A model generated the notes under the pieces. The model saw only the letters and a program-made list of their open reading frames with translations, was not told the origin of the DNA and searched no databases. From a virus (lineage: Duplodnaviria > Heunggongvirae > Uroviricota > Caudoviricetes): DNA of 4,755 nucleotides. Both the position numbers and the translations under genes were made by a program. The stretch lies in IMG/VR virus record IMGVR_UViG_2671180411_000012; one strand, 5' to 3'. Shown in pieces: positions 1 through 4,755 of this stretch (the first letter of the stretch is position 1; every line of letters begins with the position of its first letter).

Positions 1-119
1 GTCCGGGCATGAAGATACCCCGCGCTCAGCGTGGACTGATGTTCAGACGCCCATGCAGGCGCACCGGATACGGCCAGACAAATGGCTGCGGACAAAATGG
101 CGGCACAAACTTTACGCAT
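1..119 (-). CDS. lom: Lom-family outer membrane protein (Ail/Lom/OmpX family), N-terminal 39 codons only; the gene runs off the window at position 1
   Basis: Minus-strand ATG at 119-117 is preceded by GAGAGG 5 nt upstream. Translation is MRKVCAAILSAAICLAVSGAPAWASEHQSTLSAGYLHAR..., a typical Sec signal peptide with an A-W-A cleavage motif. It is near-identical to the N-terminus of phage lambda Lom as I recall it (MRKLYAAILSAAICLAVSGAPAWASEHQSTLSAGYLHA...). Position immediately downstream of J matches lambda gene order. Not in the ORF track because it has no stop inside the window. Confidence 0.85.
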   Translation of the reverse strand, partial: MRKVCAAILSAAICLAVSGAPAWASEHQSTLSAGYLHAR

Positions 120-124
120 AATTA

Positions 125-130
125 CCTCTC
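125..130 (-). promoter_or_regulatory. Shine-Dalgarno / ribosome-binding site for lom
   Basis: Minus-strand GAGAGG (plus-strand cctctc at 125-130), with a 5-nt spacer before the lom ATG at 119-117. Confidence 0.6.
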
Positions 131-140
131 GCTTTTCTGC

Positions 141-167
141 AATAAAAAAGGCGTCATTCCTGACGCC
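141..167 (-). terminator. Rho-independent (intrinsic) terminator between J and lom
   Basis: Perfect 7-bp inverted repeat ggcgtca (150-156) / tgacgcc (161-167) around a 4-nt loop. On the minus-strand RNA this is GGCGUCA-GGAA-UGACGCC (GNRA tetraloop) followed directly by UUUUUUAUU (plus-strand 149-141). It lies about 22 nt downstream of the J stop codon. An A-tract upstream makes it potentially bidirectional, but the U-tract is best on the minus strand. Confidence 0.65.
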
Positions 168-189
168 ATTTATTGGGGTTATAAATATT

Positions 190-1958
190 TCAACGAATAC
201 TGATGCCGGAAGCCGCTTTTTTGGTCACAATCACCGTACAGTCGGTGATATTGCCTGCCCCCTGATTGCCTTTCTGGAAAATCTTAAACTCCAGAGTGAC
301 GCTACCACCACCACTAGGCATATCAATAACTGCACTGTAACTACCGGGAATGGCACCTTTAGTTTCTCTGGATGCGATTAATACGCCGTTTTTGCGAACT
401 TCAAAACCATAACCCGTGTATCGCGTGCCTCCTGGGTTATTTCCGCTCCCCGGATCGTCATACGCTATACCGTTAAAAATAATGGGCGGAATAATAATCT
501 GGCGGTCAAAGTTATGATCATCGCTTATGGTGACTGTAACCGTCCCGTTTGGTGTTTCCGTGTTACCCCACGTACCAGCCTGTTTCGGAAATGATTTGGA
601 TACAGCTTTAACGAAGTCACCTCTGACCTGAGTCGCCTCCAGCATGCCCTTAATCGTACAGTTTTCATTTACCGTGACATTGTTGAGCGTCCCGGCGTTC
701 GCATTCACACTGCCACTGATATCCGCATTTTTAGCGGTCAGCTTTCCGTCCGGAGTCAGGGAAAATGCCGATGGATTTCCACCGCTGGTAATGGTGGGGG
801 CCGTCAGGCGTTTCAGGAACACGTCGTTCATGAATATCTGATCGCCCTGACCAACAAACATCGGTTTTGTGTTGCCATTCGCAGGATTAACCATCGCAAT
901 CCTGTCCGCCGCCAGCAGCACCTGACTCTGCATGCCGTCAGGGGTGTTCTCAATACCGGCACCAATACCCGCGATATAAAGGCGTCCGTCCTGCATCTGC
1001 TGCAGCTTCACAGCCCACATGCTGTTCAGGTTATTATTTGTATCAACCTGAACCTTCTGTATCTGCTGAATTGCCGCACTCTGGTCTTCCAGTTTCTTAT
1101 TGACGGTCTGCGTGATTTCATTGCTGACATCCGTAATGGACGTCCTGATTTCAGCCAGGTCAGGCGCAAGCTGACCGTTATCAATCTGCGTCCACAGCTC
1201 CTGAGCCAGATGGGTTTTCCCTATCTCGCCTTTGAAAAAATCCAGATAACCGGATGCATCATCACTCGGCTGACCAACAGCCTCCACGAATGCCGATTTG
1301 CCAACGGTGTTCACACTGCGGATATAAAAGTAATAATCATGGCCCGGTTTGATATTGATACTGGCGGCTATCCAGTACAGCGCCGTGCCAAGATAGCGTG
1401 CTGTGGTTTCAACCTGCCTGATATCCGCAATCCGCTTTTCCGAGAACCAGAACTCAAACTGTACCGTCGGATCATAAACCGCAAGATGCGGCGTGGCGGT
1501 TATCTGAAAATAGCCCGGCGTCAGCTCAATCCGCGACAGCGCTGCCGGTGCGGCAATCCGGAACGATACCGACGCCGGATCGCCCTGCTGCCCCCACGCA
1601 TTTACTGCCCGGACTGTCAGCCTGTAGTTCCCCAGCGCCAGTTGTGTGAAGCGGTAAGTGGTTTCCGTCGTCCGGGCCGTGCTGACCAGCCGCTCACTGC
1701 CGTCATCCGCTGTTACGGTCAGACGGAGCAGGAAGCTCACGCCCTTCACCACCTTCGGCGTGTCCCAGCGCGCCAGCACCTGATATTCCCCGCTGTCTGC
1801 GGTGACTTCGGCAGTCAGGTGCTGCACCGCTGGCGGCGTGACACCATTCACCGTGCCGCTCTGGTCGCCGTCAAAGTGCGCCCCGTTATCCACGATGGCT
1901 TCTTTTTCCGGCACATGCTGCACGGCGGTGATGGCATACGTGCCGTCGTCGTTCTCAC
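190..1958 (-). CDS. J: Host specificity protein J (tail tip / central tail fibre), C-terminal segment: second FN3-like module to the stop codon (TGA at 192-190)
   Basis: This is the low-coordinate part of the 970-aa minus-strand ORF (190..3102). It reads [30 protein letters not shown]...[30 protein letters not shown]...[55 protein letters not shown]...[10 protein letters not shown]. Long blocks match my recollection of phage lambda gpJ (e.g. [43 protein letters not shown]). The last ~170 residues are diverged from lambda. Bounded upstream by the N-run at 1959. Confidence 0.93.
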
Positions 1959-2576
1959 NNNNNNNNNNNNNNNNNNNNNNNNNNNNNNNNNNNNNNNNNN
2001 NNNNNNNNNNNNNNNNNNNNNNNNNNNNNNNNNNNNNNNNNNNNNNNNNNNNNNNNNNNNNNNNNNNNNNNNNNNNNNNNNNNNNNNNNNNNNNNNNNNN
2101 NNNNNNNNNNNNNNNNNNNNNNNNNNNNNNNNNNNNNNNNNNNNNNNNNNNNNNNNNNNNNNNNNNNNNNNNNNNNNNNNNNNNNNNNNNNNNNNNNNNN
2201 NNNNNNNNNNNCCAGGCATTTACCGCCCGGACTGTCAGCGTGTACCGTCCCAGCGCCAGTTGCGTGAAGCGGTATGTGGTTTCCGTCGTCCGGGCCGTGC
2301 TGACCAGCCGCTCACTGCCGTCATCCGCTGCCACGGTCAGGCGAAGCATAAAGCTCACCCCCTTCACCACCTTCGGCGTGTCCCAGCGCGCCAGCACCTG
2401 ATATTCCCCGCTGTCTGCGGTGACTTCGGCAGTCAGGTGCTGCACCGCTGGCGGCGTGACACCATTCACCGTGCCGCTCTGGTCGCCGTCAAAGTGCGCC
2501 CCGTTATCCACGATGGCTTCTTTTTCCGGTACATGCTGCACGGCAGTGATGGCATACGTGCCGTCATCGTTCTCAC
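1594..2576. repeat. Direct repeat pair of a 365-bp FN3-like domain module of J (copy 1 at 2212-2576, copy 2 at 1594-1958), separated by the N-run
   Basis: Manual alignment gives 18 mismatches in 365 nt (about 95% identity), offset exactly 618 nt. There is a 170-nt perfectly identical core (1742-1911 vs 2360-2529); mismatches cluster at the NAW-proximal end plus 3 near the ENDDG end. Most changes are synonymous; protein differences are M/L, A/T and RYT/NYR. Confidence 0.9.
1959..2211. other. N-run (253 nt): assembly gap or masked sequence inside J
   Basis: Uninterrupted n characters. Flanked on both sides by the ~95% identical 365-bp FN3-like module; the copy-to-copy period is 618 nt, which keeps the reading frame. 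Confidence 0.95.
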
Positions 2577-2749
2577 GGATACTCACACAGCGGAACAGGC
2601 GCTGGCGCAACGTCGGCAGCTTCAGCCCCCACACGCTGTATTCAGCAACGCCGTCAGGAACACGGCTCACTTTCACCTTCACGCCGTCGGTGACGGACTG
2701 AACCTCCACGCTGACCGGATTGCCACTTCCGTCAACCAGGCTTATCAGC
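2212..2749 (-). CDS. J: Host specificity protein J, internal segment (LISLVDGSGNPVSVEVQ... through the first FN3-like module ending ...[12 protein letters not shown])
   Basis: Same reading frame as 190..1958 (codon phase is preserved across the 253-nt N-run). Translation [68 protein letters not shown]...[14 protein letters not shown] matches the central region of lambda gpJ as recalled. Bounded by N-runs on both sides. Confidence 0.9.
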
Positions 2750-3026
2750 NNNNNNNNNNNNNNNNNNNNNNNNNNNNNNNNNNNNNNNNNNNNNNNNNNN
2801 NNNNNNNNNNNNNNNNNNNNNNNNNNNNNNNNNNNNNNNNNNNNNNNNNNNNNNNNNNNNNNNNNNNNNNNNNNNNNNNNNNNNNNNNNNNNNNNNNNNN
2901 NNNNNNNNNNNNNNNNNNNNNNNNNNNNNNNNNNNNNNNNNNNNNNNNNNNNNNNNNNNNNNNNNNNNNNNNNNNNNNNNNNNNNNNNNNNNNNNNNNNN
3001 NNNNNNNNNNNNNNNNNNNNNNNNNN
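2750..3026. other. N-run (277 nt): assembly gap or masked sequence inside J
   Basis: Uninterrupted n characters. The J frame differs by 1 nt between flanks, and the run is much longer than the ~22 residues that separate ...GGRVLA from LISLVDG... in lambda gpJ as recalled. This points to an estimated-size scaffold gap, not exact masked sequence. Confidence 0.95.
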
Positions 3027-4291
3027 ACCGCCAGCACGCGCCCGCCGATGCTGATACCCGCATAGTCATCATCACAGATTTCAATGACATCGCCCGGCAC
3101 ATGGCGAAGCCCTTCTGCGCCCACGCTGAAGTCCACGGTCTGCGTTTCCAGCAGTTCTGTTTTAATCAGCCACAGCCCGGCGCGGTGTGCCTGCCCCCGG
3201 CTGGTACAGCCAAAGGCATCCATCTTCGTGACGTTACGACCGTAACGGACAATGGCCTGCGTATCCTCCACAAGCTCTGTCGCCGTCTCCCAGCCGTTAT
3301 CCGGGTCAATCCAGTTCACCTCAACGGCATTATGGCGGTCTTTCAGGGCGCTGAAACTGTAGCGGAACGGCGCGCCATCATCCGGCATCACCACATTACT
3401 GCGGTTATAGGCCCACACCTTATCCGACTGTCGGTCCTGCACGAACGTCAGCGTCTGCCCGTTCCATACCGGCATACAGCGCATCGCCGAGCAGAAATCA
3501 CTGAGCACATCCCACGCCTTGCGCTGTGTGGTCAGCCAGGCATTACAGGTGATGCGCGGCTCCGTGCTGCCAAAGCCGTCCGGCACCGACTGGTCACAGT
3601 ACTGGCCGATGACATACAGCGCCCATTTATCCACATCTGCCGCACCAAGACGTTTCCCCATGCCATAGCGCGGATGGGTCAGCATATCCCACAGACACCA
3701 GGCCATGTTGTTGCTGTATGCCGGTTTTAACGTTCCGTCCCAGATACCGCTGTATTGCCGCGTCTGCGGATTATAGTTCGACGGCACCTGCAGAATGCGC
3801 CCGCGAAGATGATAATTACGGCTCACCTGCTGGCTGCCGAACTGTTCCGAGTCCACCTGCACACCGACCAGTGCCGTGTTCGGGTAGCACTGTTTCACAT
3901 CGATGATTTCGGTGTATGACGACCAGAGCGTTTTGTTCTGCAGCTGGTCTGTGGTGCTGTCCGGCGTCATTCTGCGCATCCGGATATTAAACGGGCGCGG
4001 CGGCAGGTTATCCACCACCACCGAGGCCAGATACTGCGAGGTGGTTTCCACCAGTGCCTGTACACCGAAGGTAAAACGCAGTCGGTCAATGTTTGCCGAC
4101 GTGATGGTCCGGGTGATCGGCGTGTCATATTTCACTTCCGTACCCAGCACCGTCTCGGAGCCGGAGGATTCAAACCCCTCCGGCGGTGTCTGCTCCTGCT
4201 CACCTGCCCGGAACACCACCGTGACACCGGAGATATTGGTATTCCCCTCACTGTCCAGCACCGGCGTACTGTTCAGCAGCACGCTTTTTAA
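3027..4291 (-). CDS. J: Host specificity protein J, N-proximal/central segment (LKSVLLNSTPVLDSEGNTNISG... to ...EICDDDYAGISIGGRVLA)
   Basis: Minus-strand frame of the 516-aa ORF (2732..4282); its apparent start is an internal GTG (V of LKSVLLNS), not the true start. Near-identical to my recollection of lambda gpJ from roughly residue 50 onward (LKSVLLNSTPVLDTEGNTNISGVTVVFRAGEQEQTPPEGFESSGSETVLGTEVKYDTPITRTITSANIDRLRFTFGVQALVETTS...), except for an in-frame absence of ~35 residues after ...ALVETTS. The frame is offset by 1 relative to the 190..2749 segments, so the 277-nt N-run does not preserve phase. The ADKPG tail of this ORF and the MCRAMSLK... head of the 970-aa ORF are wrong-frame read-through artefacts. 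Confidence 0.9.
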
Positions 4292-4541
4292 NNNNNNNNN
4301 NNNNNNNNNNNNNNNNNNNNNNNNNNNNNNNNNNNNNNNNNNNNNNNNNNNNNNNNNNNNNNNNNNNNNNNNNNNNNNNNNNNNNNNNNNNNNNNNNNNN
4401 NNNNNNNNNNNNNNNNNNNNNNNNNNNNNNNNNNNNNNNNNNNNNNNNNNNNNNNNNNNNNNNNNNNNNNNNNNNNNNNNNNNNNNNNNNNNNNNNNNNN
4501 NNNNNNNNNNNNNNNNNNNNNNNNNNNNNNNNNNNNNNNNN
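4292..4541. other. N-run (250 nt): assembly gap or masked sequence between two overlapping J N-proximal segments
   Basis: Uninterrupted n characters. The flanks carry overlapping, not consecutive, J protein sequence. Confidence 0.95.
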
Positions 4542-4755
4542 CTTTTTCCGTCACCCAGCCACCGTTACGCTGTATCTGAACCAGCAGGCGAACTTCAGAC
4601 GGATTCCTGTCTCCCTTTGAGGTGGTTTCCACCAGTGCCTGTACACCGAAGGTAAAACGCAGTCGGTCAATGTTTGCCGACGTGATGGTCCGGGTGATCG
4701 GCGTGTCATATTTCACTTCCGTACCCAGCACCGTCTCGGAGCCGGAGGATTCAAA
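4542..4755 (-). CDS. J: Host specificity protein J, separate N-proximal fragment (FESSGSETVLGTEVKYD...ALVETTSKGDRNPSEVRLLVQIQRNGGWVTEK); overlaps in protein content with segment 3027..4291 and runs off the window end
   Basis: Minus-strand frame of the 147-aa ORF (4288..4731). Its upper 137 bp are nucleotide-identical to 4038-4174. It then continues with KGDRNPSEVRLLVQIQRNGGWVTEK, which is present in lambda gpJ as recalled but absent from the 3027..4291 copy. It is therefore a second, more lambda-like J allele fragment or an overlapping contig end. Confidence 0.8.

Follow-up and report, generated by a model that had tools for sequence, protein, structure and literature searches.

A probable 105-bp in-frame deletion between short direct repeats in a prophage copy of the lambda-type tail-tip gene J

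In a 4,755-nt stretch of viral DNA (IMG/VR record IMGVR_UViG_2671180411_000012; the window hereafter), two fragments of the lambda-type tail-tip gene J agree base for base over 137 nt and then part, one continuing through codons that the other lacks. The locus raises the question of whether the shorter fragment is a natural deletion variant of J, the boundary of a recombination between J alleles, or a product of assembly. Sequence comparisons indicate that it is probably a lambdoid prophage copy of J with a 105-bp in-frame deletion between short direct repeats. We present here the make-up of the window, the anatomy of the junction, its occurrence elsewhere, and the predicted effect on the protein.

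A scaffold through several J alleles

The coding sequence of the window, all on the minus strand, consists of J and, after it, the beginning of an Ail/Lom-family gene. J is cut into four pieces, A to D, by three runs of N (1959-2211, 2750-3026, and 4292-4541), and the J coordinates of the pieces were obtained by mapping onto an annotated E. coli gpJ gene (L001). The features, in the direction of transcription, are as follows.

4542-4755, minus strand: piece D; J nt 241-454, codons 81-151, long form (BLAST against L001)
4619-4755, minus strand: exact 137-nt repeat of 4038-4174, with the upstream copy of the direct repeat inside it at 4619-4628
4542-4618, minus strand: first 77 nt of the 105-nt segment (K127-K151), present on piece D only and ending at the N run
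4292-4541: scaffold gap between D and C; 250 N; the two pieces overlap by 137 nt in J coordinates
3027-4291, minus strand: piece C; J nt 124-377 joined to 473-1493 (codons ~42-126 and 162-498), short form
4038-4047, minus strand: single kept copy of the repeat AAACCACCTC, codons (E)TTS; the junction base is 4037 (G of TCG)
2750-3026: scaffold gap between C and B; 277 N where 63 nt of J are missing; the pieces are out of frame across it
2212-2749, minus strand: piece B; J nt 1557-2094, a second allele of a region also covered by piece A
1959-2211: scaffold gap between B and A; 253 N; the two pieces overlap in J coordinates
1-1958, minus strand: piece A; J nt 1730 to the stop codon, and beyond
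190-1958, minus strand: 3′ part of J on piece A; 588 codons, with the stop codon at 190-192
150-167, minus strand: terminator-like hairpin, GGCGTCA-GGAA-TGACGCC followed by TTTTTT; GC-rich 7-bp stem and 4-nt loop
1-119, minus strand: start of the Ail/Lom-family gene (MRKVCAAILSAAICLAVSGAPAWA...), running off the window

Pieces D and C overlap in J, so their order and the size of the gap between them are not collinear with one gene. In their own overlap, pieces A and B differ by 19 mismatches in 365 nt (1594-1958 versus 2212-2576; 94.8% identity). A region near the start of the FNIII repeats (...RAVNAW) is seen twice, on pieces A and B, in frames that happen to agree; this double region is two alleles in one scaffold, not a tandem duplication.

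The ends of the pieces recur elsewhere. Window positions 1958, 4542, and 4755 match contig ends in unrelated NCBI assemblies to the base (L123, L124, and L125). The first base of Shigella sonnei contig AAUSMS010000300.1 (GCA_013856525.1) is the start of piece A, from which the contig differs at 2 of 1,958 nt; it encodes the same 588-amino-acid product, a protein recorded once in the database. In assemblies GCA_902840185.1 and GCA_012919285.2, contigs of 214 nt share both ends with piece D and encode its 71-amino-acid product. Piece ends also directly adjoin allele-variable sites, such as a single-nucleotide difference at 4175, one base beyond the stretch shared with piece D. Coincident ends beside variable sites are the signature of assembly-graph forks in a multicopy gene.

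The pieces thus overlap across N runs, differ as alleles, and end at recurrent contig ends. The window is therefore a scaffold in which two or more J alleles are entangled, and it comes from a draft genome containing several lambdoid prophages; this genome is probably from Shigella sonnei or from an E. coli closely related to it. Since piece D is a fragment of an intact long form, the genome holds at least two J genes, for which reason the assembler split J up and strung the overlapping pieces together with runs of N. That the N runs mask real sequence was considered and rejected: the gap lengths do not fit J, the pieces overlap, and their ends are contig ends elsewhere. An earlier sequence-only reading of the window spoke of two J copies; both stretches are J fragments, but they are two contig pieces of an N-gapped scaffold and not demonstrably adjacent genes.

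The reading frame of piece C is open from end to end, and its exact 421-amino-acid product is absent from the protein collection. Homology to the N-terminal hub (PF24801 and PF13550) places it in the gpJ/TipJ family. Chance resemblance is no issue, since pieces C and D are fragments of the same gene family. Residues 1-358 of the long-form relative align end to end with the gpJ chains of phage lambda (PDB 8IYK, 8K35, 8XCG, and 9E7M), and the likeness extends to the same families (PF24801, PF13550, and the C-terminal J modules) and the same order, J and then Ail/Lom. The C-terminal modules (Ig_J, Phage_Tail_Tip, and Ig_GpJ_C) were found on the identical 588-amino-acid product of piece A and, given at least two alleles, may not come from the gene copy that carries the deletion. 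Toward its 3′ end, in the receptor-binding part, J on piece A can be aligned only in part with L001 and L126, the J genes used for comparison.

A junction between direct repeats

The 35-codon difference and the point at which the fragments diverge were confirmed as first described. Positions 4038-4174 and 4619-4755 are identical over their 137 nt at an offset of 581, and the first differing bases are 4037 and 4618. On the minus strand, piece D reads GAA ACC ACC TCA AAG GGA and piece C reads GAA ACC ACC TCG CAG TAT, so that the two part at TCA AAG versus TCG CAG. Translated, piece D runs FESSGSE...ALVETTSKGDRNPSEVRLLVQIQRNGGWVTEK and then into 250 N, and piece C runs ...ALVETTSQYLASVVVDNLPPRPFNIRMRR across the junction; beyond the shared stretch, piece D goes on KGDRNPSEVRLLVQIQRNGGWVTEK and piece C goes on QYLASVVVDNLPPRPF. 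Lambda gpJ had been taken to have the long form, correctly: chains 8iyk_J and 9e7m_Ja both read VETTS126-KGDRNPSEVRLLVQIQRNGGWVTEKDITIKGKTTS161-QYLAS. Piece C lacks exactly 105 nt, or 35 codons, equivalent to lambda gpJ K127-S161. The same 105-nt difference holds against E. coli gpJ (L001), the Shigella sonnei phage J gene (L126), and ~115 further long-form loci.

In L001 and L126, the 105 nt are bracketed by a 10-nt direct repeat, AAACCACCTC, at J nt 368-377 and 473-482. The repeat codes for TTS, first as residues 124-126 and then as 159-161, and its length is 10 to 11 nt across long forms. By BLAST, piece C matches L001 and L126 in two collinear parts that overlap by 10 nt in the query (245-254) and skip 105 nt of the subject. 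Apart from the missing segment, it matches L126 perfectly for 137 nt upstream of the junction and 175 nt downstream; the closest mismatches on either side are at window positions 4175 and 3863. Piece D is 100% identical (214/214 nt) to L126, which is the J gene of Shigella sonnei 6207 "plasmid unnamed1" (NZ_CP061364.1); over these 214 nt it therefore represents an intact long copy of that allele type in the same genome.

The ancestral repeat is thus present at both ends of the missing segment, one copy is kept, and a single allele is collinear with both flanks. The absence of an allele change at the junction argues for a repeat-to-repeat deletion and not a mosaic break point. A mosaic recombination boundary between J alleles, one of the two origins first proposed, finds no footing here, as the nearest relative (L126 on both sides) and the level of identity are unchanged across the junction.

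The repeat pair is widespread. Flank spacing was 105 nt throughout 121 long-form loci, apart from small alignment-end effects (~115 loci at exactly 105), and an exact direct repeat of at least 10 nt at this spacing was found in 90 of them (74%). About a quarter lack a repeat of that length.

Misalignment of the repeats would remove one copy together with the intervening DNA, by slipped-strand replication or by RecA-independent or single-strand-annealing recombination. The deletion is in frame because both copies encode T-T-S in the same frame. No stimulating DNA secondary structure was found between the repeats, where folding energy is ordinary (z = 0.29 and -0.58 for the two strands). In E. 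coli, deletions between short direct repeats arise by slipped-strand mispairing or RecA-independent recombination, with classic hot spots in lacI. The J event resembles these in that a 10- to 11-bp repeat flanks the loss, one copy is kept, the flanks are unchanged, and the event recurs on different backgrounds. It differs from them in excising a complete structural element in frame, in having no stimulating structure, and in that its mechanism is proposed from the end product.

Occurrence of the short form

The short junction was found in none of 5,426 complete E. coli genomes, whether with a 66-nt probe or with an exact 40-nt junction probe, in a search confined to E. coli chromosomes. The 66-nt probe gave 0 records yet listed 6 genomes with at least 80% probe coverage, and the 40-nt probes gave none. 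With queries of 401 nt and of the full 1,265 nt of piece C, every top match was in two parts and spanned the extra 105 nt. The junction was likewise not found in 50,697 phage records or in plasmids, the exact 34-nt junction had no match in GTDB representatives, and a degenerate junction pattern had none in IMG/VR or GTDB representatives. In JGI metagenomes, the degenerate pattern had one match (L122), on an unrelated AT-rich contig, which is a chance match. A control pattern for the long form matched at least 120 IMG/VR contigs. Altogether, the short form was absent among ~15,000 J-like places in complete genomes and from 252 phage records with the region. Protein searches with 59- and 421-amino-acid short-form queries returned long forms alone.

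That the deletion is a singleton was overturned by a query of 148 short-form residues. It revealed short-form proteins of a different allele family (P0195 and P0207, with cluster mates P0301 and P0302). Five draft assemblies carry the same junction (GCA_054094005.1, GCA_054118015.1, GCA_049247115.1, GCA_018432085.1, and GCA_012188385.1), in all cases as ETTS/Q(Y/F)LAS at J nt 378, and three of these contigs run from the upstream tail gene I into J. The five represent four backgrounds, 19 to 40 substitutions apart in ~500 nt, of an O157-like allele family that is ~80% identical to the window around the junction. L130, from E. coli strain 155, is the long form of this family, and in it an 11-nt repeat, AGACCACCTCA, stands at both ends of the 105 nt. 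Locus L127 equals L130 downstream of the junction and is close to it upstream. Each short form is an exact repeat-to-repeat deletion of the long form of its own family. Neither the complete E. coli genomes nor the phage records contain the junction of the O157-like family.

Among database sequences that include the region, the frequency of the short form is roughly estimated, from cluster sizes, at 1 in 10,000. Draft assemblies number several hundred thousand, as a rough figure. With few cases among so many drafts, a real junction and an artefactual one would alike be expected to be missing from 5,426 complete genomes, and its absence there favors neither.

The deletion is rare but recurrent, at a widely conserved repeat pair. 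At least four J backgrounds besides that of the window would have gained the same deletion, by new origin or by spread, making the repeat pair a candidate low-frequency deletion hot spot. The suggestion that piece C is a natural deletion variant holds in that, compared with all other J genes examined, it shows a deletion, with its junction in five more drafts, but as the form is rare it holds in a weak sense. A limited literature search found no description of it, and it appears to be a new minor variant of a well-known protein.

The explanation that best survives beside a genuine deletion is that the isolate has long-form J alone and that the junction was made by merging at a 10- to 11-nt overlap or by template switching in the library. 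We regard this as unlikely. The four J pieces overlap one another across N gaps; piece D, a long form with the identical 137-nt flank, adjoins piece C; and piece ends that are contig ends in other assemblies mark assembly-graph break points. All six junctions are in short-read draft contigs and none in complete genomes, and draft J proteins include obvious chimeras and internal duplications (P0033, P0035, P0056, P0184, and P0187). The gap-closing steps of some assemblers accept overlaps of ~10 nt. Overlap merging, however, needs two contig ends that stop exactly at the two repeat copies, and the graph kept the long continuation as piece D, so the upstream sequence was no dead end. Chimeras formed during amplification are as a rule much too scarce to prevail in an assembly. 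Repeats of 10 to 11 nt are shorter than the k-mers of de Bruijn assemblers, and the junction lies inside a 1,265-nt contig, 254 nt and 1,011 nt from its ends, so reads spanning it should exist. Against an artefact stands also the recurrence of the junction in six assemblies from different submitters, one of them third-party (TPA), on different backgrounds and in contigs that take in gene I as well as J. A literature search for misassembly of J gave nothing useful.

Other rare rearrangements of the J region were seen in draft-assembly proteins (P0209, P0219, P0184, P0187, P0033, P0035, and P0056). They include a 36-residue deletion (ETTSKGD/SVVVGNLPP), a 27-residue deletion (QIQRN/LPPRP), and several internal duplications, and some of the proteins finish in sequence that is out of frame or from the reverse strand. 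Where a genome with several prophages is drafted from short reads, J is fragmented, re-used across scaffolds, and sometimes rearranged. Because J is tangled in such drafts, apparent "two copies" and indels in it need read-level confirmation.

An old, stable lineage of short-form J, or a mosaic break point at which a shorter J module was recombined onto a lambda-like N terminus, is highly improbable. Lambdoid J is mosaic, as seen in the window itself, where the 3′ part on piece A is 80 to 90% identical to L001 and L126 and piece D is 100% identical to L126, and the four backgrounds of the second family could descend from one ancestor reshuffled by recombination. Yet the nearest relative does not change across the junction, either for piece C (L126) or for L127 (close to L130), and every short form is an exact deletion of the long form of its own family. 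Nor did complete E. coli genomes, phage records, IMG/VR, GTDB representatives, or JGI metagenomes yield any short form.

The FNIII-A hairpin and its probable loss

The segment was first placed in the part of J that joins the tail tip complex, which is roughly right: the region is the FNIII-A (Ig-like) insertion in the gpJ hub (PMC10721106). FNIII-A comprises gpJ residues 72-215, is part of the tail-tip hub, and contacts gpI (PMC10721106). In piece C, the Pfam domain PF13550 (Phage-tail_3) is intact (E = 2.1e-42) and PF24801 (FNIII-A_GpJ) is split (E = 1e-25); profile positions ~42-76 of 126 are missing, so that the complete FNIII-A domain is not present.

Among 31 aligned sequences, the segment is absent from that of the window only. 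Nine of its residues are invariant in the 30 homologues, which are 69 to 97% identical. Solved homologues from phage T1 and the F2 pyocin and the J-like gp24 keep the segment, with at most one extra residue.

An AlphaFold2 model of the long form has strands at residues 130-143 and 146-157, joined by an N-G-G turn (pLDDT, 69 to 87). Residues 92-198 of this model have pLDDT values of 60 to 87; its mean pLDDT is 43.8, poor overall. With the same alignment, the short form lost most strands of the domain, where pLDDT was 27 to 42 (mean, 31.2); both models are shallow. Foldseek matched the long-form model to gpJ in the PDB at a global root mean square deviation of ~19 Å, FNIII-A alone being confidently modeled, and this comparison did not validate the strand positions. 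As modeled, residues 127-161 are the long central beta-hairpin of FNIII-A, which is present in lambda gpJ and missing in piece C.

Conservation and the two low-confidence models suggest that FNIII-A would be misfolded or weakened in the short J protein and that the prophage copy is probably defective for tail-tip assembly or function. Short J may then be a lesion drifting in a prophage. Structurally, removal of the hairpin could be tolerated, as its two ends are side by side.

The HDII-ins2 domain, which we infer to be FNIII-A under another name, turns during opening and defines where the DNA channel is narrowest (Ge and Wang, PMC11101478). The Ur-lambda paper gives no role for FNIII-A. Phage T5 pb3 has the same hub-domain scaffold as gpL and gpJ and is without the whole of FNIII-A (PMC10721106), whereas short J keeps about three-quarters of the domain and loses its core hairpin. 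The loss in short J is thus unlike the clean domain-level difference between families such as that of T5 pb3.

A functional, selected variant would require the TTS...TTS pair to be kept as a switch for shedding the FNIII-A hairpin while the tail tip still works, and this we consider very unlikely. The two sites use the same codons (ACC ACC TC) in two families that are ~20% diverged, the repeat is at least 10 nt long in 74% of the loci sampled, the loss takes a whole hairpin in frame, and it recurs. ACC, however, is simply the preferred threonine codon in E. coli. Such a switch is also at odds with the quarter or so of long forms that lack the repeat, with conservation of the hairpin down to the T1 and F-pyocin homologues, with the absence of the short form from any isolated phage in the phage records searched, with its frequency of about 1 in 10,000 sequences covering the region (a rough figure), and with the lack of unusual structure in the DNA between the repeats. 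Slimmer still is the prospect that TTS...TTS is a built-in excision site yielding a functional J without the hairpin and altering the hold on gpI or the gating of DNA exit, in which case the hairpin would be a dispensable, switchable element and not the core of FNIII-A.

If the deletion in piece C is real, as we think probable, it points to a minor deletion hot spot in a phage gene that is among the best studied and provides a natural gpJ mutant, lacking residues 127-161, for probing the role of FNIII-A that the structural papers leave open. The short form leaves the understanding of phage biology unchanged.

Some observations concern the neighborhood of the junction and the sequences used for comparison. 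The terminator-like hairpin lies between the J stop codon (190-192) and the Lom-like start (119), inside the late operon; the gene order of J and then Ail/Lom is annotated likewise in L001 and L126. The C-terminal third of J in the window (~190-1190) aligns patchily with the two reference J genes, at 80 to 90% with unaligned stretches, which suggests a different central-fiber or receptor-binding module in the J gene of piece A. The replicon holding L126 (NZ_CP061364.1) is a 42.4-kb circle with tape-measure, L, K-like, I, J, and Lom genes and resembles the genome of a lambdoid phage deposited under a plasmid label. Finally, two fragments that are near-identical to J of E. coli (P0002 and P0057) are labeled Enterococcus faecalis and Streptococcus pneumoniae in NCBI, labels that probably reflect assembly contamination.
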